DNA of 64,000 nt from Naegleria gruberi (Eukaryota): the NCBI GenBank assembly GCA_000004985.1, contig GG738893.1, one strand, 5' to 3'. Below, one piece after another: positions 2,008-43,365 of this stretch. Both the position numbers and the translations under genes were made by a program. The notes beneath the pieces are model-generated. The model was given only the letters and a program-made list of their open reading frames with translations. It did not search any database and was not told where the DNA came from. The stretch's first letter is position 1. The number at the start of each line of letters is the position of its first letter.

Positions 2008-5000
2008 NNNNNNNNNNNNNNNNNNNNNNNNNNNNNNNNNNNNNNNNNNNNNNNNNNNNNNNNNNNNNNNNNNNNNNNNNNNNNNNNNNNNNNNNNNNNN
2101 NNNNNNNNNNNNNNNNNNNNNNNNNNNNNNNNNNNNNNNNNNNNNNNNNNNNNNNNNNNNNNNNNNNNNNNNNNNNNNNNNNNNNNNNNNNNNNNNNNNN
2201 NNNNNNNNNNNNNNNNNNNNNNNNNNNNNNNNNNNNNNNNNNNNNNNNNNNNNNNNNNNNNNNNNNNNNNNNNNNNNNNNNNNNNNNNNNNNNNNNNNNN
2301 NNNNNNNNNNNNNNNNNNNNNNNNNNNNNNNNNNNNNNNNNNNNNNNNNNNNNNNNNNNNNNNNNNNNNNNNNNNNNNNNNNNNNNNNNNNNNNNNNNNN
2401 NNNNNNNNNNNNNNNNNNNNNNNNNNNNNNNNNNNNNNNNNNNNNNNNNNNNNNNNNNNNNNNNNNNNNNNNNNNNNNNNNNNNNNNNNNNNNNNNNNNN
2501 NNNNNNNNNNNNNNNNNNNNNNNNNNNNNNNNNNNNNNNNNNNNNNNNNNNNNNNNNNNNNNNNNNNNNNNNNNNNNNNNNNNNNNNNNNNNNNNNNNNN
2601 NNNNNNNNNNNNNNNNNNNNNNNNNNNNNNNNNNNNNNNNNNNNNNNNNNNNNNNNNNNNNNNNNNNNNNNNNNNNNNNNNNNNNNNNNNNNNNNNNNNN
2701 NNNNNNNNNNNNNNNNNNNNNNNNNNNNNNNNNNNNNNNNNNNNNNNNNNNNNNNNNNNNNNNNNNNNNNNNNNNNNNNNNNNNNNNNNNNNNNNNNNNN
2801 NNNNNNNNNNNNNNNNNNNNNNNNNNNNNNNNNNNNNNNNNNNNNNNNNNNNNNNNNNNNNNNNNNNNNNNNNNNNNNNNNNNNNNNNNNNNNNNNNNNN
2901 NNNNNNNNNNNNNNNNNNNNNNNNNNNNNNNNNNNNNNNNNNNNNNNNNNNNNNNNNNNNNNNNNNNNNNNNNNNNNNNNNNNNNNNNNNNNNNNNNNNN
3001 NNNNNNNNNNNNNNNNNNNNNNNNNNNNNNNNNNNNNNNNNNNNNNNNNNNNNNNNNNNNNNNNNNNNNNNNNNNNNNNNNNNNNNNNNNNNNNNNNNNN
3101 NNNNNNNNNNNNNNNNNNNNNNNNNNNNNNNNNNNNNNNNNNNNNNNNNNNNNNNNNNNNNNNNNNNNNNNNNNNNNNNNNNNNNNNNNNNNNNNNNNNN
3201 NNNNNNNNNNNNNNNNNNNNNNNNNNNNNNNNNNNNNNNNNNNNNNNNNNNNNNNNNNNNNNNNNNNNNNNNNNNNNNNNNNNNNNNNNNNNNNNNNNNN
3301 NNNNNNNNNNNNNNNNNNNNNNNNNNNNNNNNNNNNNNNNNNNNNNNNNNNNNNNNNNNNNNNNNNNNNNNNNNNNNNNNNNNNNNNNNNNNNNNNNNNN
3401 NNNNNNNNNNNNNNNNNNNNNNNNNNNNNNNNNNNNNNNNNNNNNNNNNNNNNNNNNNNNNNNNNNNNNNNNNNNNNNNNNNNNNNNNNNNNNNNNNNNN
3501 NNNNNNNNNNNNNNNNNNNNNNNNNNNNNNNNNNNNNNNNNNNNNNNNNNNNNNNNNNNNNNNNNNNNNNNNNNNNNNNNNNNNNNNNNNNNNNNNNNNN
3601 NNNNNNNNNNNNNNNNNNNNNNNNNNNNNNNNNNNNNNNNNNNNNNNNNNNNNNNNNNNNNNNNNNNNNNNNNNNNNNNNNNNNNNNNNNNNNNNNNNNN
3701 NNNNNNNNNNNNNNNNNNNNNNNNNNNNNNNNNNNNNNNNNNNNNNNNNNNNNNNNNNNNNNNNNNNNNNNNNNNNNNNNNNNNNNNNNNNNNNNNNNNN
3801 NNNNNNNNNNNNNNNNNNNNNNNNNNNNNNNNNNNNNNNNNNNNNNNNNNNNNNNNNNNNNNNNNNNNNNNNNNNNNNNNNNNNNNNNNNNNNNNNNNNN
3901 NNNNNNNNNNNNNNNNNNNNNNNNNNNNNNNNNNNNNNNNNNNNNNNNNNNNNNNNNNNNNNNNNNNNNNNNNNNNNNNNNNNNNNNNNNNNNNNNNNNN
4001 NNNNNNNNNNNNNNNNNNNNNNNNNNNNNNNNNNNNNNNNNNNNNNNNNNNNNNNNNNNNNNNNNNNNNNNNNNNNNNNNNNNNNNNNNNNNNNNNNNNN
4101 NNNNNNNNNNNNNNNNNNNNNNNNNNNNNNNNNNNNNNNNNNNNNNNNNNNNNNNNNNNNNNNNNNNNNNNNNNNNNNNNNNNNNNNNNNNNNNNNNNNN
4201 NNNNNNNNNNNNNNNNNNNNNNNNNNNNNNNNNNNNNNNNNNNNNNNNNNNNNNNNNNNNNNNNNNNNNNNNNNNNNNNNNNNNNNNNNNNNNNNNNNNN
4301 NNNNNNNNNNNNNNNNNNNNNNNNNNNNNNNNNNNNNNNNNNNNNNNNNNNNNNNNNNNNNNNNNNNNNNNNNNNNNNNNNNNNNNNNNNNNNNNNNNNN
4401 NNNNNNNNNNNNNNNNNNNNNNNNNNNNNNNNNNNNNNNNNNNNNNNNNNNNNNNNNNNNNNNNNNNNNNNNNNNNNNNNNNNNNNNNNNNNNNNNNNNN
4501 NNNNNNNNNNNNNNNNNNNNNNNNNNNNNNNNNNNNNNNNNNNNNNNNNNNNNNNNNNNNNNNNNNNNNNNNNNNNNNNNNNNNNNNNNNNNNNNNNNNN
4601 NNNNNNNNNNNNNNNNNNNNNNNNNNNNNNNNNNNNNNNNNNNNNNNNNNNNNNNNNNNNNNNNNNNNNNNNNNNNNNNNNNNNNNNNNNNNNNNNNNNN
4701 NNNNNNNNNNNNNNNNNNNNNNNNNNNNNNNNNNNNNNNNNNNNNNNNNNNNNNNNNNNNNNNNNNNNNNNNNNNNNNNNNNNNNNNNNNNNNNNNNNNN
4801 NNNNNNNNNNNNNNNNNNNNNNNNNNNNNNNNNNNNNNNNNNNNNNNNNNNNNNNNNNNNNNNNNNNNNNNNNNNNNNNNNNNNNNNNNNNNNNNNNNNN
4901 NNNNNNNNNNNNNNNNNNNNNNNNNNNNNNNNNNNNNNNNNNNNNNNNNNNNNNNNNNNNNNNNNNNNNNNNNNNNNNNNNNNNNNNNNNNNNNNNNNNN

Positions 5001-7109
5001 NNNNNNNNNNNNNNNNNNNNNNNNNNNNNNNNNNNNNNNNNNNNNNNNNNNNNNNNNNNNNNNNNNNNNNNNNNNNNNNNNNNNNNNNNNNNNNNNNNNN
5101 NNNNNNNNNNNNNNNNNNNNNNNNNNNNNNNNNNNNNNNNNNNNNNNNNNNNNNNNNNNNNNNNNNNNNNNNNNNNNNNNNNNNNNNNNNNNNNNNNNNN
5201 NNNNNNNNNNNNNNNNNNNNNNNNNNNNNNNNNNNNNNNNNNNNNNNNNNNNNNNNNNNNNNNNNNNNNNNNNNNNNNNNNNNNNNNNNNNNNNNNNNNN
5301 NNNNNNNNNNNNNNNNNNNNNNNNNNNNNNNNNNNNNNNNNNNNNNNNNNNNNNNNNNNNNNNNNNNNNNNNNNNNNNNNNNNNNNNNNNNNNNNNNNNN
5401 NNNNNNNNNNNNNNNNNNNNNNNNNNNNNNNNNNNNNNNNNNNNNNNNNNNNNNNNNNNNNNNNNNNNNNNNNNNNNNNNNNNNNNNNNNNNNNNNNNNN
5501 NNNNNNNNNNNNNNNNNNNNNNNNNNNNNNNNNNNNNNNNNNNNNNNNNNNNNNNNNNNNNNNNNNNNNNNNNNNNNNNNNNNNNNNNNNNNNNNNNNNN
5601 NNNNNNNNNNNNNNNNNNNNNNNNNNNNNNNNNNNNNNNNNNNNNNNNNNNNNNNNNNNNNNNNNNNNNNNNNNNNNNNNNNNNNNNNNNNNNNNNNNNN
5701 NNNNNNNNNNNNNNNNNNNNNNNNNNNNNNNNNNNNNNNNNNNNNNNNNNNNNNNNNNNNNNNNNNNNNNNNNNNNNNNNNNNNNNNNNNNNNNNNNNNN
5801 NNNNNNNNNNNNNNNNNNNNNNNNNNNNNNNNNNNNNNNNNNNNNNNNNNNNNNNNNNNNNNNNNNNNNNNNNNNNNNNNNNNNNNNNNNNNNNNNNNNN
5901 NNNNNNNNNNNNNNNNNNNNNNNNNNNNNNNNNNNNNNNNNNNNNNNNNNNNNNNNNNNNNNNNNNNNNNNNNNNNNNNNNNNNNNNNNNNNNNNNNNNN
6001 NNNNNNNNNNNNNNNNNNNNNNNNNNNNNNNNNNNNNNNNNNNNNNNNNNNNNNNNNNNNNNNNNNNNNNNNNNNNNNNNNNNNNNNNNNNNNNNNNNNN
6101 NNNNNNNNNNNNNNNNNNNNNNNNNNNNNNNNNNNNNNNNNNNNNNNNNNNNNNNNNNNNNNNNNNNNNNNNNNNNNNNNNNNNNNNNNNNNNNNNNNNN
6201 NNNNNNNNNNNNNNNNNNNNNNNNNNNNNNNNNNNNNNNNNNNNNNNNNNNNNNNNNNNNNNNNNNNNNNNNNNNNNNNNNNNNNNNNNNNNNNNNNNNN
6301 NNNNNNNNNNNNNNNNNNNNNNNNNNNNNNNNNNNNNNNNNNNNNNNNNNNNNNNNNNNNNNNNNNNNNNNNNNNNNNNNNNNNNNNNNNNNNNNNNNNN
6401 NNNNNNNNNNNNNNNNNNNNNNNNNNNNNNNNNNNNNNNNNNNNNNNNNNNNNNNNNNNNNNNNNNNNNNNNNNNNNNNNNNNNNNNNNNNNNNNNNNNN
6501 NNNNNNNNNNNNNNNNNNNNNNNNNNNNNNNNNNNNNNNNNNNNNNNNNNNNNNNNNNNNNNNNNNNNNNNNNNNNNNNNNNNNNNNNNNNNNNNNNNNN
6601 NNNNNNNNNNNNNNNNNNNNNNNNNNNNNNNNNNNNNNNNNNNNNNNNNNNNNNNNNNNNNNNNNNNNNNNNNNNNNNNNNNNNNNNNNNNNNNNNNNNN
6701 NNNNNNNNNNNNNNNNNNNNNNNNNNNNNNNNNNNNNNNNNNNNNNNNNNNNNNNNNNNNNNNNNNNNNNNNNNNNNNNNNNNNNNNNNNNNNNNNNNNN
6801 NNNNNNNNNNNNNNNNNNNNNNNNNNNNNNNNNNNNNNNNNNNNNNNNNNNNNNNNNNNNNNNNNNNNNNNNNNNNNNNNNNNNNNNNNNNNNNNNNNNN
6901 NNNNNNNNNNNNNNNNNNNNNNNNNNNNNNNNNNNNNNNNNNNNNNNNNNNNNNNNNNNNNNNNNNNNNNNNNNNNNNNNNNNNNNNNNNNNNNNNNNNN
7001 NNNNNNNNNNNNNNNNNNNNNNNNNNNNNNNNNNNNNNNNNNNNNNNNNNNNNNNNNNNNNNNNNNNNNNNNNNNNNNNNNNNNNNNNNNNNNNNNNNNN
7101 NNNNNNNNN
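2008..7109. other. Assembly gap (5102 N)
   Basis: Run of n characters. ORF-track 'proteins' made of X across it are artefacts. Confidence 1.
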
Positions 7110-8227
7110 GTACAAATGCTGGTTCTCTTACTTTAATTGATTCCAGTAATTCACTTGTTCAAGGTAATTGTGTCAATGGTATTGATGGAGCAAATGATAT
7201 TTTTGGTCAATTCGCCTCATGCAATGGAAAGCAATTTTTTGAAGCTGTCCAAACATCAATCAGTCAAATTATTAAGGAAAAGGCAACCAATGATCCTGGT
7301 TCCTTCTTTAATCCACCAGTTCCAGCACTTGGCACTGCACTTGATGGAAAATCATGTATGACTGTCAGAGATTTTGGTATTGTTGACATGGATCAATCAG
7401 ATAACGTTGTTACATCCTATATCATTAGTACAAACAAGACATTGGCAGGTAGAACTTGTCAAAATACTGCAGCTAATTTGAAAGCCCTTGGAGGAACTGC
7501 TCAAACCCAAACATTGGTAAATGGTTCTGATAATAGATTGTTAGCTGTTGCAATGGCACGTGCTCTAAATTGCACTCCATACATGGCCCCTGATTTGGCC
7601 AATAATGGTCAATTGACTCAGTCATTGGCATTGGACGAGATTCATGCTAAATTGAAACAAAAAGCACCGATTGCTCTTCTTCCAAAAGGAAATCCAATGG
7701 TAAGAAGCAATGATCAAGCAAACCTTGAAAAACTCAACTTGTACAGAGCTGCTGTTTTTCAACCACAAGTTTCCAGTGTTGCATTTGCTTCCACTCGTCT
7801 CTATTGTAAACATTACGCAGTTGTGGCACCTGCCAGAATATTCCTCGACAAGTCTATCACTTTGAAATATGCAAGTCCTGACACTGGAGTTGCCAATAAT
7901 TTATTCACATTCCTAGCTCAGAGATTTGTGAATAGTTGGGAAGGATTGAAATGTGGTTGCATTCTCGATATGCCTTGTCCAATTTCTATTGTTGTGGATA
8001 AGAATGGAGTAACTACAGATGCTAGTTTATCCACAATGATGGCTAGATCTGTAAATGTTGATTCTTTGATGGATCAAATGGTTTTGGAATTTGATGGCTA
8101 CATGGATGAAAACAATACATTGGATGTAAGAGCTCTAGTTAGTGAGTCAAATAGTGTTTTTACCAACAATGGTCCTGTGTATATTCTTCTTACCATTGTT
8201 GTGTCTATCATGTTCAATCTTTTGTAA
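7110..8227 (+). CDS. C-terminal portion (about 370 aa) of a large, probably extracellular Cys-containing protein with a C-terminal hydrophobic tail (GPVYILLTIVVSIMFNLL), GPI-anchor or TM-like. The 5' part is lost in the gap
   Basis: Long open frame emerging from the gap and ending at the TAA at 8225-8227. Composition is typical of a secreted or surface protein. No recognisable catalytic motif. Confidence 0.5.
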
Positions 8228-8324
8228 ATAAAATTCATTGTCAATACTTTCTCTCTTTTAAATAATTAAGAAATGGCTGTAAGGCCGAAATAATGATTAG
8301 TGTGACCAATTATCCTTAATAACT

Positions 8325-8397
8325 GCCCGTCTAGCTCATTCGGTAGAGCGCAAGGCTCTTAACCTTGTGGTCGTGGGTTCGACCCCCACGGTGGGCG
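8325..8397 (+). tRNA. tRNA-Lys, anticodon CTT (CUU), 73 nt
   Basis: GCCCGTCTAGCTCATTCGGTAGAGCGCAAGGCTCTTAACCTTGTGGTCGTGGGTTCGACCCCCACGGTGGGCG folds as a canonical cloverleaf. The acceptor stem is 7 bp with two G-T pairs. The anticodon stem is CAAGG/CCTTG with loop CTCTTAA. The T-arm is GTGGG-TTCGACC-CCCAC. It is near-identical to metazoan tRNA-Lys(CUU). A downstream T-run (TTTTTA, 8404-8409) serves as the Pol III terminator. Confidence 0.93.
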
Positions 8398-8425
8398 ATT
8401 CATGTTTTTATTTATTCATGGTTGA

Positions 8426-8472
8426 TGTTTATTGTTGGATCTTCAGTTTTCATTGAAGATTGACAATAAACA
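8426..8472. other. Perfect compound hairpin 28 nt downstream of the tRNA: stem TGTTTATTGT/ACAATAAACA (10 bp), internal bulge, stem TCTTCA/TGAAGA (6 bp), loop GTTTTCAT
   Basis: Seen directly. 16 of 16 stem positions pair. Function unknown; possibly a terminator-associated element, or an insertion footprint or target for tRNA-targeting retroelements. Confidence 0.6.
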
Positions 8473-9250
8473 GACGTAATTGGACTGGCTACAAGATGTG
8501 AAATAATTAGATTAATTAAAATACTTTTATCCCGAGATCTAGAACTTTGGAAACTTTTCGTCTACTTTCTCATTTTTATTGTGTTCACCTTCTTTTTTGC
8601 TAAATTCAGATTGCAAAAGTTTCAAAAATGGAATATTTACAAATGACCATCCAACAATATTTCTTCAAAATCTGAACTATTCCCACTCATTCTCTGCAAT
8701 TTCTTTCAAATATTTCATAAGGTATTGAATTCATCCTCATTGATTGACACACTGAATCAGAATGGTAAAATGAAAAGGCCTTTCGCCAAAGAAATCGACC
8801 TCCAACACTAAAAAGCACTTGAAAGCGACACAATGCAATAGTAATCCTTGCAATACGAAACCCCTAAGGTTCATTTCCCACAAGCACAACAAGGCAAATG
8901 AGAATAGTTTGCTTGGTGCTGTGTGTGAAAATCGTCATCCAAAAAAACCAAATAACACACCACTTTGCTTGAATATGAACACCCACTCAACAAACAATCA
9001 AAATTTTACACCAAATAATAGTGTAGTAGTAGTAGTTGAAGAAGATGATACTACTCACACCATTGTTGTTGATGGTTTGTGGTGTTTTTCTGTTAAAGGC
9101 AATGACCACCACGTTGCGATTCAAAAGGTAGAAAGTATAAAATTTGCTACACCAATGACAGAAAGCGATTTTGGCAACAAGTTTGATGGAGGTAATGAAC
9201 AATCGAGCGCCTCCAAGTATTGATACTGCGAGTAGATTATTGATGGACGA

Positions 9251-12200
9251 NNNNNNNNNNNNNNNNNNNNNNNNNNNNNNNNNNNNNNNNNNNNNNNNNN
9301 NNNNNNNNNNNNNNNNNNNNNNNNNNNNNNNNNNNNNNNNNNNNNNNNNNNNNNNNNNNNNNNNNNNNNNNNNNNNNNNNNNNNNNNNNNNNNNNNNNNN
9401 NNNNNNNNNNNNNNNNNNNNNNNNNNNNNNNNNNNNNNNNNNNNNNNNNNNNNNNNNNNNNNNNNNNNNNNNNNNNNNNNNNNNNNNNNNNNNNNNNNNN
9501 NNNNNNNNNNNNNNNNNNNNNNNNNNNNNNNNNNNNNNNNNNNNNNNNNNNNNNNNNNNNNNNNNNNNNNNNNNNNNNNNNNNNNNNNNNNNNNNNNNNN
9601 NNNNNNNNNNNNNNNNNNNNNNNNNNNNNNNNNNNNNNNNNNNNNNNNNNNNNNNNNNNNNNNNNNNNNNNNNNNNNNNNNNNNNNNNNNNNNNNNNNNN
9701 NNNNNNNNNNNNNNNNNNNNNNNNNNNNNNNNNNNNNNNNNNNNNNNNNNNNNNNNNNNNNNNNNNNNNNNNNNNNNNNNNNNNNNNNNNNNNNNNNNNN
9801 NNNNNNNNNNNNNNNNNNNNNNNNNNNNNNNNNNNNNNNNNNNNNNNNNNNNNNNNNNNNNNNNNNNNNNNNNNNNNNNNNNNNNNNNNNNNNNNNNNNN
9901 NNNNNNNNNNNNNNNNNNNNNNNNNNNNNNNNNNNNNNNNNNNNNNNNNNNNNNNNNNNNNNNNNNNNNNNNNNNNNNNNNNNNNNNNNNNNNNNNNNNN
10001 NNNNNNNNNNNNNNNNNNNNNNNNNNNNNNNNNNNNNNNNNNNNNNNNNNNNNNNNNNNNNNNNNNNNNNNNNNNNNNNNNNNNNNNNNNNNNNNNNNNN
10101 NNNNNNNNNNNNNNNNNNNNNNNNNNNNNNNNNNNNNNNNNNNNNNNNNNNNNNNNNNNNNNNNNNNNNNNNNNNNNNNNNNNNNNNNNNNNNNNNNNNN
10201 NNNNNNNNNNNNNNNNNNNNNNNNNNNNNNNNNNNNNNNNNNNNNNNNNNNNNNNNNNNNNNNNNNNNNNNNNNNNNNNNNNNNNNNNNNNNNNNNNNNN
10301 NNNNNNNNNNNNNNNNNNNNNNNNNNNNNNNNNNNNNNNNNNNNNNNNNNNNNNNNNNNNNNNNNNNNNNNNNNNNNNNNNNNNNNNNNNNNNNNNNNNN
10401 NNNNNNNNNNNNNNNNNNNNNNNNNNNNNNNNNNNNNNNNNNNNNNNNNNNNNNNNNNNNNNNNNNNNNNNNNNNNNNNNNNNNNNNNNNNNNNNNNNNN
10501 NNNNNNNNNNNNNNNNNNNNNNNNNNNNNNNNNNNNNNNNNNNNNNNNNNNNNNNNNNNNNNNNNNNNNNNNNNNNNNNNNNNNNNNNNNNNNNNNNNNN
10601 NNNNNNNNNNNNNNNNNNNNNNNNNNNNNNNNNNNNNNNNNNNNNNNNNNNNNNNNNNNNNNNNNNNNNNNNNNNNNNNNNNNNNNNNNNNNNNNNNNNN
10701 NNNNNNNNNNNNNNNNNNNNNNNNNNNNNNNNNNNNNNNNNNNNNNNNNNNNNNNNNNNNNNNNNNNNNNNNNNNNNNNNNNNNNNNNNNNNNNNNNNNN
10801 NNNNNNNNNNNNNNNNNNNNNNNNNNNNNNNNNNNNNNNNNNNNNNNNNNNNNNNNNNNNNNNNNNNNNNNNNNNNNNNNNNNNNNNNNNNNNNNNNNNN
10901 NNNNNNNNNNNNNNNNNNNNNNNNNNNNNNNNNNNNNNNNNNNNNNNNNNNNNNNNNNNNNNNNNNNNNNNNNNNNNNNNNNNNNNNNNNNNNNNNNNNN
11001 NNNNNNNNNNNNNNNNNNNNNNNNNNNNNNNNNNNNNNNNNNNNNNNNNNNNNNNNNNNNNNNNNNNNNNNNNNNNNNNNNNNNNNNNNNNNNNNNNNNN
11101 NNNNNNNNNNNNNNNNNNNNNNNNNNNNNNNNNNNNNNNNNNNNNNNNNNNNNNNNNNNNNNNNNNNNNNNNNNNNNNNNNNNNNNNNNNNNNNNNNNNN
11201 NNNNNNNNNNNNNNNNNNNNNNNNNNNNNNNNNNNNNNNNNNNNNNNNNNNNNNNNNNNNNNNNNNNNNNNNNNNNNNNNNNNNNNNNNNNNNNNNNNNN
11301 NNNNNNNNNNNNNNNNNNNNNNNNNNNNNNNNNNNNNNNNNNNNNNNNNNNNNNNNNNNNNNNNNNNNNNNNNNNNNNNNNNNNNNNNNNNNNNNNNNNN
11401 NNNNNNNNNNNNNNNNNNNNNNNNNNNNNNNNNNNNNNNNNNNNNNNNNNNNNNNNNNNNNNNNNNNNNNNNNNNNNNNNNNNNNNNNNNNNNNNNNNNN
11501 NNNNNNNNNNNNNNNNNNNNNNNNNNNNNNNNNNNNNNNNNNNNNNNNNNNNNNNNNNNNNNNNNNNNNNNNNNNNNNNNNNNNNNNNNNNNNNNNNNNN
11601 NNNNNNNNNNNNNNNNNNNNNNNNNNNNNNNNNNNNNNNNNNNNNNNNNNNNNNNNNNNNNNNNNNNNNNNNNNNNNNNNNNNNNNNNNNNNNNNNNNNN
11701 NNNNNNNNNNNNNNNNNNNNNNNNNNNNNNNNNNNNNNNNNNNNNNNNNNNNNNNNNNNNNNNNNNNNNNNNNNNNNNNNNNNNNNNNNNNNNNNNNNNN
11801 NNNNNNNNNNNNNNNNNNNNNNNNNNNNNNNNNNNNNNNNNNNNNNNNNNNNNNNNNNNNNNNNNNNNNNNNNNNNNNNNNNNNNNNNNNNNNNNNNNNN
11901 NNNNNNNNNNNNNNNNNNNNNNNNNNNNNNNNNNNNNNNNNNNNNNNNNNNNNNNNNNNNNNNNNNNNNNNNNNNNNNNNNNNNNNNNNNNNNNNNNNNN
12001 NNNNNNNNNNNNNNNNNNNNNNNNNNNNNNNNNNNNNNNNNNNNNNNNNNNNNNNNNNNNNNNNNNNNNNNNNNNNNNNNNNNNNNNNNNNNNNNNNNNN
12101 NNNNNNNNNNNNNNNNNNNNNNNNNNNNNNNNNNNNNNNNNNNNNNNNNNNNNNNNNNNNNNNNNNNNNNNNNNNNNNNNNNNNNNNNNNNNNNNNNNNN

Positions 12201-14085
12201 NNNNNNNNNNNNNNNNNNNNNNNNNNNNNNNNNNNNNNNNNNNNNNNNNNNNNNNNNNNNNNNNNNNNNNNNNNNNNNNNNNNNNNNNNNNNNNNNNNNN
12301 NNNNNNNNNNNNNNNNNNNNNNNNNNNNNNNNNNNNNNNNNNNNNNNNNNNNNNNNNNNNNNNNNNNNNNNNNNNNNNNNNNNNNNNNNNNNNNNNNNNN
12401 NNNNNNNNNNNNNNNNNNNNNNNNNNNNNNNNNNNNNNNNNNNNNNNNNNNNNNNNNNNNNNNNNNNNNNNNNNNNNNNNNNNNNNNNNNNNNNNNNNNN
12501 NNNNNNNNNNNNNNNNNNNNNNNNNNNNNNNNNNNNNNNNNNNNNNNNNNNNNNNNNNNNNNNNNNNNNNNNNNNNNNNNNNNNNNNNNNNNNNNNNNNN
12601 NNNNNNNNNNNNNNNNNNNNNNNNNNNNNNNNNNNNNNNNNNNNNNNNNNNNNNNNNNNNNNNNNNNNNNNNNNNNNNNNNNNNNNNNNNNNNNNNNNNN
12701 NNNNNNNNNNNNNNNNNNNNNNNNNNNNNNNNNNNNNNNNNNNNNNNNNNNNNNNNNNNNNNNNNNNNNNNNNNNNNNNNNNNNNNNNNNNNNNNNNNNN
12801 NNNNNNNNNNNNNNNNNNNNNNNNNNNNNNNNNNNNNNNNNNNNNNNNNNNNNNNNNNNNNNNNNNNNNNNNNNNNNNNNNNNNNNNNNNNNNNNNNNNN
12901 NNNNNNNNNNNNNNNNNNNNNNNNNNNNNNNNNNNNNNNNNNNNNNNNNNNNNNNNNNNNNNNNNNNNNNNNNNNNNNNNNNNNNNNNNNNNNNNNNNNN
13001 NNNNNNNNNNNNNNNNNNNNNNNNNNNNNNNNNNNNNNNNNNNNNNNNNNNNNNNNNNNNNNNNNNNNNNNNNNNNNNNNNNNNNNNNNNNNNNNNNNNN
13101 NNNNNNNNNNNNNNNNNNNNNNNNNNNNNNNNNNNNNNNNNNNNNNNNNNNNNNNNNNNNNNNNNNNNNNNNNNNNNNNNNNNNNNNNNNNNNNNNNNNN
13201 NNNNNNNNNNNNNNNNNNNNNNNNNNNNNNNNNNNNNNNNNNNNNNNNNNNNNNNNNNNNNNNNNNNNNNNNNNNNNNNNNNNNNNNNNNNNNNNNNNNN
13301 NNNNNNNNNNNNNNNNNNNNNNNNNNNNNNNNNNNNNNNNNNNNNNNNNNNNNNNNNNNNNNNNNNNNNNNNNNNNNNNNNNNNNNNNNNNNNNNNNNNN
13401 NNNNNNNNNNNNNNNNNNNNNNNNNNNNNNNNNNNNNNNNNNNNNNNNNNNNNNNNNNNNNNNNNNNNNNNNNNNNNNNNNNNNNNNNNNNNNNNNNNNN
13501 NNNNNNNNNNNNNNNNNNNNNNNNNNNNNNNNNNNNNNNNNNNNNNNNNNNNNNNNNNNNNNNNNNNNNNNNNNNNNNNNNNNNNNNNNNNNNNNNNNNN
13601 NNNNNNNNNNNNNNNNNNNNNNNNNNNNNNNNNNNNNNNNNNNNNNNNNNNNNNNNNNNNNNNNNNNNNNNNNNNNNNNNNNNNNNNNNNNNNNNNNNNN
13701 NNNNNNNNNNNNNNNNNNNNNNNNNNNNNNNNNNNNNNNNNNNNNNNNNNNNNNNNNNNNNNNNNNNNNNNNNNNNNNNNNNNNNNNNNNNNNNNNNNNN
13801 NNNNNNNNNNNNNNNNNNNNNNNNNNNNNNNNNNNNNNNNNNNNNNNNNNNNNNNNNNNNNNNNNNNNNNNNNNNNNNNNNNNNNNNNNNNNNNNNNNNN
13901 NNNNNNNNNNNNNNNNNNNNNNNNNNNNNNNNNNNNNNNNNNNNNNNNNNNNNNNNNNNNNNNNNNNNNNNNNNNNNNNNNNNNNNNNNNNNNNNNNNNN
14001 NNNNNNNNNNNNNNNNNNNNNNNNNNNNNNNNNNNNNNNNNNNNNNNNNNNNNNNNNNNNNNNNNNNNNNNNNNNNNNNNNNNNN
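9251..14085. other. Assembly gap (4835 N), beginning about 850 bp downstream of the tRNA gene
   Basis: Run of n characters. The short ORFs flanking the gap (8819-9223, 14086-14134) are not convincing coding sequence. Confidence 1.
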
Positions 14086-15653: not shown

Positions 15654-18600
15654 NNNNNNNNNNNNNNNNNNNNNNNNNNNNNNNNNNNNNNNNNNNNNNN
15701 NNNNNNNNNNNNNNNNNNNNNNNNNNNNNNNNNNNNNNNNNNNNNNNNNNNNNNNNNNNNNNNNNNNNNNNNNNNNNNNNNNNNNNNNNNNNNNNNNNNN
15801 NNNNNNNNNNNNNNNNNNNNNNNNNNNNNNNNNNNNNNNNNNNNNNNNNNNNNNNNNNNNNNNNNNNNNNNNNNNNNNNNNNNNNNNNNNNNNNNNNNNN
15901 NNNNNNNNNNNNNNNNNNNNNNNNNNNNNNNNNNNNNNNNNNNNNNNNNNNNNNNNNNNNNNNNNNNNNNNNNNNNNNNNNNNNNNNNNNNNNNNNNNNN
16001 NNNNNNNNNNNNNNNNNNNNNNNNNNNNNNNNNNNNNNNNNNNNNNNNNNNNNNNNNNNNNNNNNNNNNNNNNNNNNNNNNNNNNNNNNNNNNNNNNNNN
16101 NNNNNNNNNNNNNNNNNNNNNNNNNNNNNNNNNNNNNNNNNNNNNNNNNNNNNNNNNNNNNNNNNNNNNNNNNNNNNNNNNNNNNNNNNNNNNNNNNNNN
16201 NNNNNNNNNNNNNNNNNNNNNNNNNNNNNNNNNNNNNNNNNNNNNNNNNNNNNNNNNNNNNNNNNNNNNNNNNNNNNNNNNNNNNNNNNNNNNNNNNNNN
16301 NNNNNNNNNNNNNNNNNNNNNNNNNNNNNNNNNNNNNNNNNNNNNNNNNNNNNNNNNNNNNNNNNNNNNNNNNNNNNNNNNNNNNNNNNNNNNNNNNNNN
16401 NNNNNNNNNNNNNNNNNNNNNNNNNNNNNNNNNNNNNNNNNNNNNNNNNNNNNNNNNNNNNNNNNNNNNNNNNNNNNNNNNNNNNNNNNNNNNNNNNNNN
16501 NNNNNNNNNNNNNNNNNNNNNNNNNNNNNNNNNNNNNNNNNNNNNNNNNNNNNNNNNNNNNNNNNNNNNNNNNNNNNNNNNNNNNNNNNNNNNNNNNNNN
16601 NNNNNNNNNNNNNNNNNNNNNNNNNNNNNNNNNNNNNNNNNNNNNNNNNNNNNNNNNNNNNNNNNNNNNNNNNNNNNNNNNNNNNNNNNNNNNNNNNNNN
16701 NNNNNNNNNNNNNNNNNNNNNNNNNNNNNNNNNNNNNNNNNNNNNNNNNNNNNNNNNNNNNNNNNNNNNNNNNNNNNNNNNNNNNNNNNNNNNNNNNNNN
16801 NNNNNNNNNNNNNNNNNNNNNNNNNNNNNNNNNNNNNNNNNNNNNNNNNNNNNNNNNNNNNNNNNNNNNNNNNNNNNNNNNNNNNNNNNNNNNNNNNNNN
16901 NNNNNNNNNNNNNNNNNNNNNNNNNNNNNNNNNNNNNNNNNNNNNNNNNNNNNNNNNNNNNNNNNNNNNNNNNNNNNNNNNNNNNNNNNNNNNNNNNNNN
17001 NNNNNNNNNNNNNNNNNNNNNNNNNNNNNNNNNNNNNNNNNNNNNNNNNNNNNNNNNNNNNNNNNNNNNNNNNNNNNNNNNNNNNNNNNNNNNNNNNNNN
17101 NNNNNNNNNNNNNNNNNNNNNNNNNNNNNNNNNNNNNNNNNNNNNNNNNNNNNNNNNNNNNNNNNNNNNNNNNNNNNNNNNNNNNNNNNNNNNNNNNNNN
17201 NNNNNNNNNNNNNNNNNNNNNNNNNNNNNNNNNNNNNNNNNNNNNNNNNNNNNNNNNNNNNNNNNNNNNNNNNNNNNNNNNNNNNNNNNNNNNNNNNNNN
17301 NNNNNNNNNNNNNNNNNNNNNNNNNNNNNNNNNNNNNNNNNNNNNNNNNNNNNNNNNNNNNNNNNNNNNNNNNNNNNNNNNNNNNNNNNNNNNNNNNNNN
17401 NNNNNNNNNNNNNNNNNNNNNNNNNNNNNNNNNNNNNNNNNNNNNNNNNNNNNNNNNNNNNNNNNNNNNNNNNNNNNNNNNNNNNNNNNNNNNNNNNNNN
17501 NNNNNNNNNNNNNNNNNNNNNNNNNNNNNNNNNNNNNNNNNNNNNNNNNNNNNNNNNNNNNNNNNNNNNNNNNNNNNNNNNNNNNNNNNNNNNNNNNNNN
17601 NNNNNNNNNNNNNNNNNNNNNNNNNNNNNNNNNNNNNNNNNNNNNNNNNNNNNNNNNNNNNNNNNNNNNNNNNNNNNNNNNNNNNNNNNNNNNNNNNNNN
17701 NNNNNNNNNNNNNNNNNNNNNNNNNNNNNNNNNNNNNNNNNNNNNNNNNNNNNNNNNNNNNNNNNNNNNNNNNNNNNNNNNNNNNNNNNNNNNNNNNNNN
17801 NNNNNNNNNNNNNNNNNNNNNNNNNNNNNNNNNNNNNNNNNNNNNNNNNNNNNNNNNNNNNNNNNNNNNNNNNNNNNNNNNNNNNNNNNNNNNNNNNNNN
17901 NNNNNNNNNNNNNNNNNNNNNNNNNNNNNNNNNNNNNNNNNNNNNNNNNNNNNNNNNNNNNNNNNNNNNNNNNNNNNNNNNNNNNNNNNNNNNNNNNNNN
18001 NNNNNNNNNNNNNNNNNNNNNNNNNNNNNNNNNNNNNNNNNNNNNNNNNNNNNNNNNNNNNNNNNNNNNNNNNNNNNNNNNNNNNNNNNNNNNNNNNNNN
18101 NNNNNNNNNNNNNNNNNNNNNNNNNNNNNNNNNNNNNNNNNNNNNNNNNNNNNNNNNNNNNNNNNNNNNNNNNNNNNNNNNNNNNNNNNNNNNNNNNNNN
18201 NNNNNNNNNNNNNNNNNNNNNNNNNNNNNNNNNNNNNNNNNNNNNNNNNNNNNNNNNNNNNNNNNNNNNNNNNNNNNNNNNNNNNNNNNNNNNNNNNNNN
18301 NNNNNNNNNNNNNNNNNNNNNNNNNNNNNNNNNNNNNNNNNNNNNNNNNNNNNNNNNNNNNNNNNNNNNNNNNNNNNNNNNNNNNNNNNNNNNNNNNNNN
18401 NNNNNNNNNNNNNNNNNNNNNNNNNNNNNNNNNNNNNNNNNNNNNNNNNNNNNNNNNNNNNNNNNNNNNNNNNNNNNNNNNNNNNNNNNNNNNNNNNNNN
18501 NNNNNNNNNNNNNNNNNNNNNNNNNNNNNNNNNNNNNNNNNNNNNNNNNNNNNNNNNNNNNNNNNNNNNNNNNNNNNNNNNNNNNNNNNNNNNNNNNNNN

Positions 18601-18860
18601 NNNNNNNNNNNNNNNNNNNNNNNNNNNNNNNNNNNNNNNNNNNNNNNNNNNNNNNNNNNNNNNNNNNNNNNNNNNNNNNNNNNNNNNNNNNNNNNNNNNN
18701 NNNNNNNNNNNNNNNNNNNNNNNNNNNNNNNNNNNNNNNNNNNNNNNNNNNNNNNNNNNNNNNNNNNNNNNNNNNNNNNNNNNNNNNNNNNNNNNNNNNN
18801 NNNNNNNNNNNNNNNNNNNNNNNNNNNNNNNNNNNNNNNNNNNNNNNNNNNNNNNNNNNN
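15654..18860. other. Assembly gap (3207 N) immediately upstream of the retrotransposon 5' region
   Basis: Run of n characters. Confidence 1.
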
Positions 18861-38300: not shown

Positions 38301-40715
38301 CTGGTTCAGAATACTATTTTTATGCAACTATTGGTTTGATGATCGTAATTGGATTGCTTCTTATCGCTTATATTCAATACGATTTATTATTCTTTAAAAG
38401 ATTAGTCAAATTAATTGAAAAGGAGCTGAACAAGGATGGTATTGGAAAAATTTATCAACAATTGAATAAGAAAACTTCTATGGAAGCTTCCTTAGATTCT
38501 AATATTGTTAGCAAATCACTTCATGCAAATGCTAGTTTAGTAATTGCAATTGCATTGCTTGCTGTGTTTATTCCATTATGTATTGGAATGTTATACTTGG
38601 AAACATACAAGAACGCAAAGAGTGCTCTATTTACTTTCACCAATGTTGGATTATCTTCAAATGTAATTGAACATTTACAGTTTGCTTCATTTTATTTGGG
38701 AGAAATTCTTACACTTTTTGGTGTAGCTCACTTATCCAATAACGATGCCAGATTGTTCAATAGCAAATTGTCAAGTGGAAATTTTGAACAAATTTACAAA
38801 TCATTGAGATATGAAACTGATTTTACTGCAGCAAATTAGTAAGTAGTTTTGGAATTTTAACAATTTACTAGAATCAATGTTCAGCCAAGAATTGATATAC
38901 GGAGATGTTACTAAACCTGATGATGATCCAGTAATTGGTTTGTATCCATCTTTGGATAAGCTACTCAAACAAGGAGTTGATAATTGTACTCTTTATTTAG
39001 AACAGCATAATTTAACTCTCACACTCAAAACGAAAATTCAGTACTGTACAGGAATTGATAAAGTAATGACTGATTTCCTAACTACCATTACACAGACCAG
39101 TGAGAATACTCGAGATTTCTATACAAAACAAAATGCTGTATTTGCTGCTAATGGAACAATTTTAGATCCAACTGAAATATTTATGGAACATTACAAGTTA
39201 AATGTAATGTCTCATCCTCTGAATGACAAACTATTGATATTCATGAATGAATTTGTTAGAGTCTCTTCAGAACTATCACTAATATTACTTTTAATATTTA
39301 CTTGTTTAGGATTTTTACTCACAGCAGTCATTGGAAGACTCATATTGGCAATGATCAAGAACAAATCAAATCAACTCTACCACACCAGAATGCTAATGAA
39401 CTATATTCCAGTAGAAATGTTAGATAGAAATGAAAAACTCAAAAATGTTGCATTATTTAACTCTTTCCCTAATGCACTAGTTGAAAAGTTGAATAGAAAA
39501 GGAAAAGAGGGTTCATCTGAAAGTGGATTTAATGGCGTTGCGAATATTATCAATTCTTCAGTTGATGGATCTGCTTTGTTAAATGAAAGTGGAGATATTG
39601 AGATTTTCAACCCAGCAGCACATCGAATGTTTAATTCAACTTCAGTCGATGTATTGGGTACAAAGCTTTGTTCTTTATTTGAGGAATCGATTCAGGAAAC
39701 TATTAGAAAGACATTTGAATCCATAATAGAGCAATCTAAGAAATCTTATAATTCTGGAGGAAATGGACTCGCTCAGGAAACATTAGAAGCTGAATGTATG
39801 AGAAGAAATCAAACTAAATTCCCTGCCAAGATTAGTCTATTCACTACTCATCTTTCAGATCGTGGAACTATTGTTGTTTGTACCATTAAGGATGTGACCT
39901 CAGAGAAGAAACAACAAGCTCTCCTTGCGGACGAAAAGAAACACTCTGATAATCTACTCAAAAACATTCTTCCAGAAAATGTCGCTTCAAGACTAAAGAA
40001 GGGAGAAACATTCATTGCTGAAAAACTTTCTGATATTACATGTTTCTTCTCAGATATGGTTGGTTTCACAAAAATCAGCTCAACCATGCAAGCTACTGAA
40101 TTGGTGAAAATGTTAAATGCAGTAGTTAATGGATTTGACAATTTGACAGAGCTTTATGACCTGGAAAAGATTAAAACCATTGGAGATGCTTACTTTTGTG
40201 TAGGTGGTCTTCATGGTTCTTCAGATCACCCAGAAAGAATGTTAAAATTTGCCATGTCAACCTTCCAAGTCATTAACGATTTTAATTCTGGAAAATTTGG
40301 AGTCATTCTAGAAAATGATAATCAACTCGATATCAGAATTGGTATCAACACAGGTTCTGCTCTTGCAGGTGTGATTGGAACCAAGAAATTTGCCTACGAT
40401 TTGTGGGGTGATACCATCAATACTGCCTCAAGAATGGAATCAACTGGTCAACCAGGAAGAGTTCAAATAAGCAGATCAACCTACGAAAGAGTTTATGATA
40501 TGGGATTGGAATTTGAGGAGAAACGAGTGGAAGTAAAAGGAAAGGGAATTATGCAAAGTTATTTATTGAGTGCACGTCATCACATAAGCACCAAGGTTGA
40601 CTTGATTATTCCAATCGAACAGAAAACACTCCAAGATTATGAAATTGACAATGAACCTTTAGAACAATTAAAACTAGATAATAACACATCGTCAAGTCAA
40701 AACTCAATGGAATAA
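35349..40715 (+). CDS. Large polytopic membrane receptor with a PAS-like domain and a C-terminal class III nucleotidyl (adenylyl/guanylyl) cyclase catalytic domain, about 1760 aa. Exons are 35349-37763, (37805 or 37826)-38838 and 38885-40715
   Basis: Intron 1 has donor GTAAGT at 37764 and an acceptor at 37804 (41-nt intron) or 37825 (62-nt intron); both preserve the frame. Intron 2 is 38839-38884 (46 nt): TA|GTAAGT...TTCAG|C restores the TAC codon. The N-terminus has many TM helices, and further TM helices occur in exons 2 and 3. The PAS-like stretch is GDIEIFNPAAHRMFNS.... The cyclase motifs are FFSDMVGFT, KTIGDAYFCVGG and GINTGSALAGVIGTKKFAYDLWGDTINTASRMESTG. Confidence 0.75.
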
Positions 40716-40951: not shown

Positions 40952-42007
40952 ATGAAGAAGTATATTTCTGTATTATTATATTGTTATTGTTGGCTTGTTT
41001 GCAAATTGTTGATGCGCTTTCTATTCAAGTGAAAAACAACAAGGAAGATCCACTAATTCATGATGATGAATTTATTAGACAGTTAATCAGGCACAAAAGT
41101 ATTGGACTGCTGGAAGAAATGGCAAATTTAATGGAAAGAAGAAGTCGGATCTTGTCAGAATGTTGGGAAAGTACAATGTCAAGATGATGACTTCATCACA
41201 AAATATTGTTGAACAACCGACAAGACCAGCAATATCATCATTGGATATTCCAACAAATTATACACTCACAACTGATCCAAAATATATGAATTGTACTCAA
41301 CTTCACAAGATTAGAGATCAAAGCCAATGTGCAGCTTGCTATGCGTTTGGAGTTGCTGAAATGGTTGCTGACAGATATTGCATTTCATCTCAAGGGAAGG
41401 TCAATACCATTCTTTCACCACAATTTATTTTGAGTTGTGATGAATATGAAGGAAATTGCTATGGTGGAGATATTGGAAATACTCTTCTCTATGTTAAAAA
41501 TTATGGAATTGTTACTGATAGTTGTCTTCCATTCCTTGCTAGAAATGGCTCCAATCTCAGTTGTCCGAACAAGTGTCTCGATGGATCTAATTGGAAATTG
41601 AGATACAAGGTAAAGAATCCAAATCAAATTGCTCAAGATGATATTCAAGGAATGCAACAAAGCATTTTACAAGGTGGATCAATCATTGCTGCCTTTCAAG
41701 TTTATGAAGATTTTGCTCACTACAAGGGAGGAATATATGTTCATACAGGTGGTGCTTACATTGGTGGACATGTTGTAAAGATTGTTGGATTTGGTGAAAC
41801 TCCAAGTGGAATTCCATATTGGGTTGTTGCCAATAGGTAAGTTTATTTGTTGCTTAATATAATAATATAATATTTATTGTACCCTTTCCTGTTAATCTTG
41901 CTAGTTGGGGAGTTGACTGGGGATTATCTGGTTACTTTTATATAATTAGAGGAAAGAATGAGTGTGGATTTGAAAGTTATATTTGGCAAGCTACTCCATC
42001 TCTTTAA
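40952..42007 (+). CDS. Cathepsin B-like papain-family (C1) cysteine protease. Intron at 41837-41904 (68 nt). The 5' signal/propeptide region carries one or two apparent 1-nt frameshifts (about 40955-41085)
   Basis: The mature domain has catalytic Cys (RDQSQCAACYAFG), His (GGHVVKIVGFG) and Asn (WVVANSWGVDWG). The splice AG|GTAAGT...CTAG|T joins ...VVANR to SWGVDWGLSGYFYIIRGKNECGFESY.... Propeptide-like DPLIHDDEFIRQL (frame 1) and NQAQKYWTAGRN (frame 0) lie in different frames. Signal-peptide-like sequences follow the ATG at 40952 in yet another frame. Confidence 0.7.
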
Positions 42008-42394: not shown

Positions 42395-43365
42395 ATGAAA
42401 CTCTTCCTCGCTGTTTTTTGCTTGTTGAGCGTTGTCGCTTCTGCCTATTGTTCCTTGATTGCCAGTGGTGCTAGTTTGCGTTCAACCACTGCTTTGAATA
42501 TCAGATCAGGCCCATGTACATCAAATGGTATTGTTACTAGTGTTGGTGCTGGTACTACTTTGAAGTTTACTGGTAGCGTCCAATCTGGATGTGGTTATAC
42601 ATGGTATGGTGTTGAAGTTAATGGTAAAAGAGGACATGCTGCTTCTAATTTCTTGACTGAAGTTAATAATGGAGGTGGTGGTGGTTCTAACACTGGTGCT
42701 TCTATCAGTGTTGATGCCTTGAGAAGAATTATGCCAAACTTGTCATCATCAAAGGCTAACCAATATATTGGATATTTGAACAGTGCTTTGGCTGCTGGTA
42801 ATATTAATACTTGTTGCAGAAAGAGTGCTTTCCTTGCTCAACTTGCTCACGAATCTGGTGATTTGAATTGGTTTGTTGAATTTGCTTCAGGTGCTGCTTA
42901 TGAAGGTAGAAAGGATTTGGGTAACATTTATCCTGGTGATGGTGTTAGAGTAAGTTATCTTTGACATTTTGACTTTTGACACTTTTTGACATTTTCAATT
43001 ATTATTAATTTATTAATTATATTATAGTACAAGGGTAGAGGTCCAATTCAAATTACTGGTCGTGCTAATTATCGTGCTGCTGGTCAAGCCCTCGGAATTG
43101 ATTTGGAAAATAATCCAACCAGAGCTGCTGATCCAGATGTTGGATTCCGTACTGGTAAGTAGTTAGTTGAAAACTGTTAATAATGTTTATACTAATCAAC
43201 ACAATAGCTGTTTGGTTCTGGAACTCAAGAAGTTTGAATCAATATGCTGATCAATGTAACCAATCTGGTTTTGATATCACTACCAGAAGAATTAACGGTG
43301 GTTACAATGGTAAGGCTGACAGAGATGCTCACTGGACCAGAGGTAAGAGCGTTTTGGGATGTTAA
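42395..43365 (+). CDS. Secreted bacterial-type SH3b domain plus glycoside hydrolase family 19 (chitinase/lysozyme-like) protein. Exons are 42395-42949, 43028-43154 and 43208-43365
   Basis: Signal peptide MKLFLAVFCLLSVVASAYC. SH3b-like ALNIRSGPCTSNGIVTSVGAGTTLKF...WYGVEVNGKRGHAASNFL, then a Gly-rich linker. GH19 blocks: FLAQLAHESGDLNWFVE, YKGRGPIQITGRANY, AVWFWN and ITTRRINGGYNGKADRDAHWTRGKSVLGC. Two GTAAGT...AG introns (78 nt and 53 nt) have verified phases. Intron 1 contains (TTTTGACA)x4. Confidence 0.8.

Follow-up and report, generated by a model that had tools for sequence, protein, structure and literature searches.

The stretch of DNA considered here is a 64,000-nucleotide (nt) window from the amoeba Naegleria gruberi NEG-M (contig GG738893.1 of assembly GCA_000004985.1, a scaffold of 337 kb), and the gene of interest lies on its forward strand at positions 42395–43365 of the window. 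It is a three-exon gene, the spliced reading frame of which (840 nt, or 279 codons and a stop) encodes a protein laid out as a signal-peptide-like N-terminus, an SH3b domain, a Gly-rich linker and a glycoside hydrolase family 19 (GH19) domain. The gene is already annotated publicly and matches UniProt entry D2VS08_NAEGR: the predicted protein of 279 amino acids, 29.47 kDa and a computed isoelectric point (pI) of 9.3 has the length and mass listed for that entry, two other open reading frames (ORFs) of the window are exact matches to EFC40337/D2VS12 and EFC40342/D2VS17, and the D2VS08 accession fits their order. We consider it probable that this basic protein of the secretory pathway, with its SH3b domain, linker and GH19 domain of the type found in endolysins, is derived from bacteria or phages and acts as a muramidase that digests bacterial cell walls.

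Exon 1 (42395–42949, + strand; residues 1–185) opens with the first ATG after an in-frame stop and holds the start codon, the signal-peptide-like segment, the SH3b domain, the Gly-rich linker and the N-terminal half of the GH19 domain, including the catalytic codons E153 (42851–42853) and E162 (42878–42880). Intron 1 (42950–43027, +; 78 nt, GTAAGT..TAG) falls in phase 0 between R185 and Y186, and is followed by exon 2 (43028–43154, +; residues 186–227 and the first base of codon 228), which encodes the motif YKGRGPIQITG with Q193 and T195 (43055–43057). Intron 2 (43155–43207, +; 53 nt, GTAAGT..TAG) lies in phase 1 inside codon A228, and exon 3 (43208–43365, +; residues 228–279 and the TAA stop) supplies the C-terminal lobe of GH19 with I256, N257 and R266, as well as the eukaryote-specific C244 and the C-terminal C279. 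The introns have a GC content of 18% and 25%, versus 41% for the coding sequence. Left unspliced, the ORF from 42395 stops at 42964, after ..VRVSYL, and either intron, if retained, brings in a stop after a few codons. Both exon junctions (residues 185/186 and 227/228) are crossed without a gap in alignments to intronless bacterial and phage GH19 proteins, and the best homologue of the predicted protein is found at E = 5e-122, far beyond chance. An earlier note on this DNA, made by reading the letters, had given the coordinates, the motifs and the order of the domains exactly, and the two GTAAGT..AG introns in the phases that it assigned to them do yield the frame of 279 residues; the two domains that it named both score above their Pfam cutoffs.

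The first 17 residues (42395–42445, +; MKLFLAVFCLLSVVASA) comprise M-K, a 12-residue hydrophobic core from L3 to V14 and then A-S-A, an A-x-A motif directly before Y18, and by this hydropathy profile they look like a signal peptide. A signal-peptide-like N-terminus is seen in all of the eukaryote-type homologues, while bacterial homologues begin with LysM or PG_binding modules. The SH3b domain (42491–42655, +; residues 33–87) matches Pfam SH3_3 (PF08239) at 32.6 bits, the cutoff being 27, and is joined to the catalytic domain by the Gly/Ser-rich linker (42668–42703, +; residues 92–103; NNGGGGGSNTGA). An exhaustive HMMER search with the SH3b segment returned 1934 relatives, the strongest of which are bacterial wall hydrolases with 4–12 SH3b repeats, such as a protein with an Amidase_2 domain and seven SH3_3 domains (P0125), and from the catalytic partners of these relatives the domain is predicted to be a wall-targeting, peptidoglycan-binding module. 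Its cysteine pair, C41 and C66, is eukaryote-specific and stands in place of serines of the bacterial repeat consensus (GPST becoming GPCT, and GSGYTW becoming GCGYTW). The same Cys-bearing SH3b (GACT/GPCT..GCGYTW) recurs in the Willaertia protein ABK040_006473 (P0210), fused there not to GH19 but to a Peptidase_C39_2-like domain, and in a like fusion from a JGI contig (P0148); the C39 match reaches 26.4 bits in P0148, above the Pfam threshold of 24, and 19 bits, below it, in P0210. The occurrence of this SH3b on a C39-like peptidase suggests that Heterolobosea have a family of modular lytic enzymes directed at cell walls.

By sequence, by profile and by modelled fold, the catalytic domain is of the endolysin or lysozyme type of GH19 and not of the plant-chitinase type. 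It matches Pfam Glyco_hydro_19 (PF00182) over residues 135–236 at 56.3 bits (cutoff 25.5), a model that scores well below the PHROG endolysin families, at 175 and 138 bits. Forty-one GH19-type chains of the PDB match the predicted protein at E < 0.01, headed by two endolysins, 9eoi from a Pseudomonas aeruginosa prophage (2.7e-29) and 9ms7 from a soil phage (1.2e-28); among chitinases the Streptomyces enzyme 2cjl scores best (1.9e-18), and plant chitinases match just a core of 55–120 residues at E values of 1e-15 or weaker. Phage homologues are plentiful (1666 records), the best, 54.5% identical, being the Myxococcus phage Mx1 endolysin, and the homologue in Pseudomonas phage phiPSA1 adjoins a spanin gene. 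In N. gruberi, N. lovaniensis and Willaertia magna the gene is chromosomal, and thus we speak of an endolysin-type enzyme by sequence and fold, not of an endolysin by genomic role. The GH19ED database treats endolysins (ELYS) and chitinases as separate GH19 subfamilies, and the published classification describes the endolysin subfamily as confined to phages and bacteria. An endolysin-type GH19 in a eukaryote is a new angle here, if a modest one.

The AlphaFold2 (AF2) model of the N. lovaniensis orthologue, with a mean predicted local distance difference test score (pLDDT) of 92, has a beta-barrel (residues 33–96) and a helical domain (residues 111–282) joined by a disordered linker. The strands of the barrel are those of the SH3b domain and have pLDDT values above 94, while the segment equivalent to the Gly/Ser linker is low in pLDDT. 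All of the top 13 PDB matches of this model by Foldseek are GH19 structures: the best is 9ms7, with a template modelling (TM) score of 0.91 on the target and a root-mean-square deviation of 1.6 Å, followed by 9eoi and the SPN1S endolysin 4ok7, with chitinases lower. Judged on the orthologue, the catalytic domain is thus predicted to adopt the bilobal, alpha-helical, lysozyme-like fold. Nine active-site residues of the P. aeruginosa enzyme PaGH19Lys (9eoi), namely H50, E51, E60, Y103, Q127, T129, I187, N188 and R197, are all identical by alignment in the N. gruberi protein, where they are H152, E153, E162, Y169, Q193, T195, I256, N257 and R266. E153 and E162 align to E51 and E60, the glutamate pair, and together with T195, the threonine presumed to position the water, they are conserved in 121 of 122 aligned homologues. 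PaGH19Lys cleaves the bond between N-acetylmuramic acid (MurNAc) and N-acetylglucosamine (GlcNAc) and is inactive on chitin, chitohexaose and chitosan.

Full-length relatives are found in related amoebae. The best is C9374_005244 of N. lovaniensis, with 69% identity at 97% coverage, which has a tandem neighbour, C9374_005243; the two SH3b-GH19 genes stand at 6001–7084 and 7576–8677 of our excerpt of PYSW02000023.1, with intron positions that differ in part. Willaertia magna ABK040_009045, likewise a full-length homologue, is 67% identical, and GH19-only paralogues exist in both species. Many metagenome proteins share the SH3b-GH19 architecture, and two of these could be placed on long contigs that bear eukaryotic genes (F-box/LRR, diacylglycerol kinase, leishmanolysin, RWP-RK and a split HSP70 gene). 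The leishmanolysin of one of them has its best named match in Willaertia at just 35% identity, which suggests a divergent, probably heterolobosean, host. Within some 6–8 kb, no synteny of flanking genes was seen between the N. gruberi locus and those of N. lovaniensis, Willaertia and the two metagenome contigs L003 and L004, so the orthology of the loci cannot rest on gene order. As a side observation, the best 120 homologues include four proteins of N. lovaniensis and three of W. magna and none of N. fowleri. Either loss in the pathogenic species or the content of the database might account for this gap, which is weak evidence given that the N. gruberi proteins themselves were also not returned.

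The eukaryote-type sequences are set apart by derived characters. C140 and C279 occur together in 34 of 34 such sequences, no bacterial or phage sequence having either, and C141 and C244 occur together in nine of nine, those of Naegleria and Willaertia included, neither ever being seen alone. The covarying pairs C41-C66, C140-C279 and C141-C244 are best read as added disulfides. All eukaryote-type sequences have an insertion of three residues near position 243, as do a few others, and most bacterial relatives lack it. Separately, four proteins from short JGI contigs (P0038, P0041, P0048 and P0103) group together with a bootstrap value of 0.99 and have the three-residue insertion but neither C140 nor C279; two of them carry the Cys-type SH3b. 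They may belong to a further lineage of eukaryotes or else be a group of bacteria closely related to the donor.

Intron positions differ from lineage to lineage. Intron 1 is common, in position and phase, to N. gruberi and C9374_005244, while intron 2 is found in N. gruberi alone and is absent from the N. lovaniensis, Willaertia and L004 orthologues. The two N. lovaniensis copies share one intron that N. gruberi lacks, and in one of them there is another besides; no intron interrupts the Willaertia or the L004 gene. The prokaryote-style gene call on L003 (P0014; 8001–8993 of a contig from JGI 3300062347) contains a 57-nt in-frame insert, IGMLYNYYSCIFSTNQLIF, which interrupts the conserved motif NNPT|xAA and is probably an unspliced intron at a site unlike that of any Naegleria intron. 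Two Naegleria-like SH3b(-SH3b)-GH19 ORFs on ENA contigs (P0110 and P0226) both end right after ..AHESGDLNW, a sign, perhaps, of a further intron position in the organisms that they come from. The overall pattern fits a gene that arrived without introns and acquired them later. In their GC content at third codon positions (GC3) the orthologues follow their hosts, with values of 0.14 (Willaertia), 0.25 (N. gruberi), and 0.27 and 0.45 (two uncultured eukaryotes).

The bacterial relatives were drawn from a protein database (the best 120 of at least 7438 homologues) and from a scan of prokaryotic genomes, one per species, covering 185,579 species (the best 80 loci of at least 584 matching stretches). 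Over the GH19 domain, the N. gruberi protein is 60–73% identical to LysM-GH19 and PG_binding-GH19 proteins of Myxococcota (Archangium, Cystobacter, Stigmatella, Hyalangium, Vitiosangium, Corallococcus, Myxococcus and Pyxidicoccus) and of a few Acidobacteriota. The bacterial affinity that the earlier note had proposed for both domains is borne out: the strongest SH3b relatives are bacterial, and the GH19 domain is nearest to the proteins just named and, at 45–55% identity, to phage endolysins, with plant chitinases weak and partial matches. The distribution, with at least 7438 database homologues (those named being bacterial), at least 584 prokaryotic stretches and 1666 phage records versus few eukaryotic lineages, favours a bacterial origin. 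We infer that the catalytic domain descends from bacterial or phage GH19 lysozymes, the closest being the LysM/PG_binding-GH19 proteins of the predatory Myxococcota. In the course of events that we would propose, the gene entered an ancestor of Naegleria and Willaertia from a bacterial or phage source. Its codon usage would then have become that of the host, spliceosomal introns would have arisen at positions particular to each lineage, and extra cysteine pairs and the SH3b domain would have been added. Judged from its sharing with N. lovaniensis, W. magna and uncultured eukaryotes, from its host-like GC3 and from its lineage-specific introns, the transfer is old, and it is not specific to N. 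gruberi but an acquisition held in common with related amoebae.

The earlier note had called the SH3b-GH19 combination characteristic of bacterial and phage proteins, and here the comparisons point the other way. All SH3_3-plus-GH19 proteins among the best 120 homologues bear eukaryote-type characters, and in the best 80 loci of the prokaryotic scan no SH3b stands beside this type of GH19; these loci match residues ~94–279 only and carry LysM or PG_binding modules instead. One apparent full-length bacterial match (L042, query residues 8–277) proved to be an Archangium protein with PG_binding repeats and GH19, at a locus of 67% GC, and not an SH3b fusion. Likewise, in GH19ED the only accessory modules on at least 10 endolysin-type sequences are LysM and PG_binding_1. 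Eukaryote-type GH19 domains occur also with a second, classical subtype of SH3b, with two SH3b copies or with none, and in a neighbour-joining (NJ) tree paralogues of one genus cluster together, whether or not they have SH3b. The fusion thus looks like a eukaryotic assembly, modules shuffled inside eukaryotes being the simplest reading.

The alternative, that an SH3b-GH19 unit was transferred ready-made from an unsampled bacterium or phage, is unlikely but by no means far-fetched. Both modules are bacterial in type, modular proteins of SH3b and a hydrolase are common in bacteria and phages, the sampling of donors is incomplete, and Trichomonas acquired an SH3b-NlpC/P60 gene of a composition that is also bacterial (Bacillus cereus YkfC). 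It has to contend, however, with the eukaryote-type character of every such fusion among the best 120 proteins, with the lack of SH3b next to this GH19 in the best 80 prokaryotic loci, with the recurrence of LysM and PG_binding_1 alone on endolysin-type GH19 in GH19ED, and with the varied subtypes and copy numbers of SH3b on GH19, and the Cys-SH3b on the C39-like peptidase, which point to shuffling within eukaryotes. Returning to assembly in eukaryotes, one may tentatively go further, although we would not quite lean towards this extension: Heterolobosea, and possibly other Discoba, may have their own clade of endolysin-type GH19 muramidases, rebuilt as a eukaryotic modular lytic toolkit with added disulfides, independent intron gains and a Cys-SH3b recombined with GH19 and with the C39-like peptidase, the fusion itself being a eukaryotic invention from separately acquired bacterial parts.

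What such an enzyme might do is best judged from its characterized relatives. The LysM-GH19 group of Myxococcaceae is the counterpart of the “clade II” that a 2024 analysis describes as richer in basic residues; its member C25GH19B, from Corallococcus silvisoli, is a lysozyme with a pH optimum of 4.5–5.0 that binds peptidoglycan, lyses Gram-positive as well as Gram-negative bacteria and is not induced by chitin, and LlpM of M. xanthus is another characterized myxobacterial GH19 lysozyme (PMC9098779, PMC10875029). C25GH19B and LlpM are set beside the N. gruberi protein here by their published descriptions, the alignments having used other members of the clade. The clade shares with the N. gruberi protein the same endolysin-like type of GH19, in enzymes secreted by an organism that preys on bacteria. 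It differs in having LysM, PG_binding_1 or no module where the N. gruberi protein has SH3b, in lacking C140, C141, C244 and C279, and in its intronless, high-GC genes. The phage and prophage endolysins (PaGH19Lys/9eoi, PWe2/9ms7, SPN1S/4ok7 and Mx1) share the fold, with TM scores of up to 0.91, and 41–55% identity over the full catalytic domain, but they act inside the bacterium from a lysis cassette with holin and spanin genes, whereas the N. gruberi protein, with its signal-peptide-like N-terminus, would attack from outside or in the phagosome. The latter also has the extra SH3b and cysteine pairs and, judged by its short domain and by its best match, 9ms7, being a protein of 180 residues, is without the three-helix peptidoglycan-binding insertion of the SPN1S type.

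On analogy with these relatives, the protein is most likely a muramidase, secreted or delivered to the phagolysosome, for the digestion of bacterial walls, and of the two activities that the earlier note left side by side, bacteriolytic and chitinolytic, the former is preferred and the latter is the less likely. The signal peptide would route the protein to the phagolysosome or the medium, where the SH3b domain would dock it on the peptidoglycan of ingested or nearby bacteria. The GH19 cleft would then hydrolyse the beta-1,4 bond between MurNAc and GlcNAc by the inverting mechanism of the family, in which E153 and E162 would be the catalytic pair and T195 would presumably position the water, and the cysteine pairs would stabilize the protein as disulfides. 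With the sacculus broken, bacteria would be digested, in a digestive or antibacterial role for a bacterivore; the earlier note had guessed the host rightly, N. gruberi being a bacterivorous amoeba. This mechanism carries over to the N. gruberi protein what is known of its characterized relatives.

Several points weigh against this reading, as regards both activity and descent. The lysozyme superfamily, which includes GH19, has some members that attack peptidoglycan and chitin alike. In a supplementary table, a 2026 survey of protist chitinases enters D2VS08_NAEGR as a “GH19 chitinase” predicted to be extracellular, and this sole publication to name the protein thus calls it a chitinase. The fold was judged from a model built on the 69%-identical N. 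lovaniensis orthologue rather than on the N. gruberi protein, the disulfides are read from covariation alone, and a scan of JGI metagenome and metatranscriptome contigs for the two spliced exon-exon junctions returned no match. As to descent, the NJ tree (121 sequences, 172 columns, with bootstrap), a check that the earlier note had suggested, does bring 33 of the 34 eukaryote-type sequences together, opposite the Myxococcota and Mx1 and with the more distant phage proteins outside, but its deep nodes have bootstrap values of at most 0.15, and the relationship of bacteria to eukaryotes is not resolved by it. The mean identity within the eukaryote-type set (0.668) is, moreover, about equal to that between this set and the Archangium group (0.674). 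With so weak a tree and such equal identities, phylogeny shows neither the number nor the direction of transfers; the direction is taken from the taxonomic distribution and the derived characters, not from a supported tree.

If the protein were instead a true chitinase, it would digest fungal or chitinous prey or remodel the cyst wall, and its SH3b domain would bind a glycan other than peptidoglycan. We regard this as rather improbable, though it has its advocates in the naming of the family: GH19 holds many chitinases, the Pfam model matched here is entitled “Chitinase class I”, and the 2026 survey reports conserved catalytic and substrate-binding residues for the protein, one of four from N. 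gruberi that it lists as “GH19 chitinases”. The dual activity of some lysozyme-superfamily enzymes would allow for it too, as would the ability of the LysM modules of the bacterial relatives to bind chitin as well. The GH19 chitinases (plant classes I, II and IV; Streptomyces ChiC and ChiG) do share with the N. gruberi protein the family, the catalytic Glu pair with Ser/Thr and the lysozyme-like helical fold. They are, however, removed from it by E values of 1e-18 to 1e-9, by 22–30% identity in structural alignments and by a different loop content, and the comparisons of sequence, profile and fold all place it nearer to endolysins than to any chitinase. Its closest characterized relatives are lysozymes: PaGH19Lys, with which it shares the nine active-site residues, has no activity on the chitin substrates, and C25GH19B, from the nearest bacterial clade, does not respond to chitin by induction. 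The catalytic domain is short (~176 residues), without the extra loops of the chitinase-type myxobacterial clade I; the protein is strongly basic, as described for the peptidoglycan-directed clade; and the relatives of its SH3b are partnered with wall-acting amidases and peptidases. Beyond the survey, searches by locus tag or UniProt accession found no citing paper, searches on chitin in the Naegleria cyst wall found no usable statement, and the Naegleria pangenome and Willaertia omics papers name “chitinase” and “lysozymes” just generically.

Very improbable, to our minds, is vertical descent of an ancestral eukaryotic GH19, kin to the chitinases of plants, fungi and animals, with no transfer at all. 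GH19 chitinases do exist in several eukaryotic groups, several heteroloboseans carry the present family, and in a published tree the GH19 proteins of Naegleria fall together with GH19 of Diplonema. Yet eukaryotic chitinases are distant and partial matches, against 60–71% identity to bacterial proteins over the whole domain; the eukaryotic distribution is narrow in comparison with thousands of bacterial and the 1666 phage homologues; and intron positions are not conserved even within Naegleria, some orthologues being intronless. Descent from plant-like chitinases in particular is rejected on the weakness and partial extent of the matches to them. The earlier note had held that its proposed transfer would fall if the gene nested among widespread eukaryotic GH19 sequences, for example plant chitinases, with the same SH3b fusion common in related amoebae. 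Of these two parts the second is borne out, the fusion being present in N. lovaniensis, W. magna and uncultured eukaryotes; the shared fusion dates the transfer as old and does not refute it.

That the gene is a genuine eukaryotic one, stably integrated in a eukaryotic chromosome, is evident from its introns, its neighbours, its codon usage and an independent assembly. Its GC3 (0.254) lies inside the range of 15 neighbouring ORFs (0.22–0.34), and its relative synonymous codon usage (RSCU) correlates with that of the neighbours at 0.76, the neighbours themselves giving 0.72–0.95. An independently assembled ENA metagenome contig (L002) has the upstream protease gene, the GH19 gene and the downstream F-box gene in the same order at 98.6% identity. 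Relative to this contig, the coding sequence (837–840 nt) shows three substitutions, none of which alters the protein, and a single indel of 3 nt, a one-Gly length polymorphism in the Gly/Ser linker, while the introns show three substitutions, an 8-nt indel (intron 1) and a 2-nt indel (intron 2); though the numbers are small, these differences fit purifying selection on exons and non-coding introns. Bacterial contamination or an assembly chimera, for which one could cite only the very high similarity to bacterial proteins and the several assembly gaps in the window, is refuted, and is virtually out of the question, given two spliceosomal-type introns, a neighbour-like GC3 as against ~67% GC at the Myxococcota homologue locus L042, eukaryotic flanking genes with no gap within 23 kb, the identical three-gene arrangement in L002, and orthologues embedded in chromosome-scale contigs of N. 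lovaniensis and W. magna. The view of the earlier note that this is a domesticated eukaryotic gene and not a contaminant therefore stands, on the neighbours, L002, the introns and the comparison of codon usage and GC3 with neighbouring genes that it had suggested.

As for the surroundings, a papain-family cysteine protease gene (Peptidase_C1, 126 bits; 41160–41840, +) stands directly upstream of the GH19 gene, and the F-box protein gene lies downstream. The protease and GH19 genes are two probable digestive hydrolases side by side, a pair that is kept in L002. Other eukaryotic neighbours include genes for a MAPEG protein, an mRNA cap methyltransferase and a PAS-domain adenylate/guanylate cyclase (Guanylate_cyc, 179 bits; 38877–40715, +). 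The window opens with 75 tandem copies of AACCCA (positions 1–450, 98% matches), a telomere-type array with a short degenerate copy near 801–830, so that its start is the end of a chromosome or scaffold, and the GH19 gene, ~42 kb in, is subtelomeric. Assembly gaps (N runs) occupy 1091–1140, 2008–7109, 9251–14085 and 15654–18860, in all ~13 kb of the first 19 kb; the nearest is more than 23 kb from the gene, and the long “ORFs” listed across the four runs are artefacts. A tRNA-Lys(CTT) gene (8324–8398, +) sits between two of the gaps. A tblastn search found no further match in the window, and hence the SH3b-GH19 gene is single here.

The closest functional and evolutionary analogue is the set of SH3b-NlpC/P60 hydrolases of Trichomonas vaginalis, which were laterally acquired, degrade peptidoglycan and help the protist to outcompete bacteria (PMC6299479). 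Here, too, a protist gene of bacterial origin combines a predicted signal peptide, SH3 (PF08239) and a probable peptidoglycan hydrolase. The Trichomonas enzyme is, however, a papain-like DL-endopeptidase that cuts the peptide stem, while GH19 is a glycosidase of a type that cuts the glycan strand; and the Trichomonas proteins have two SH3b domains in a composition also found in bacteria, whereas SH3b-GH19 is without a counterpart among its nearest bacterial relatives. Transfers of GH25 lysozymes and of Tae/Dae amidases into eukaryotes are further precedents.

That the gene exists was known from its annotation, and a bacterial origin has been suggested in print, the 2026 survey mentioning possible lateral transfer in passing. 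What is new is modest: an endolysin-type GH19 in eukaryotes, the eukaryote-specific cysteine pairs, and a fusion apparently assembled in eukaryotes. No long-standing question is opened by the N. gruberi GH19 gene. With its predicted eukaryote-specific disulfides, and with relatives that are active in acid and lytic to Gram-negative bacteria, the family might also yield stable lytic enzymes. Bacterivorous protists must break peptidoglycan, and the enzymes with which Naegleria does so are poorly defined. If the protein is a muramidase, D2VS08 would be re-annotated, and the four N. gruberi “GH19 chitinases” would have to be looked at afresh, since they may be lysozymes. Eukaryotes would then be added to the endolysin branch of GH19, and antibacterial weaponry would have moved from bacterial predators or phages to a eukaryotic predator, in parallel to the NlpC/P60 enzymes of Trichomonas.

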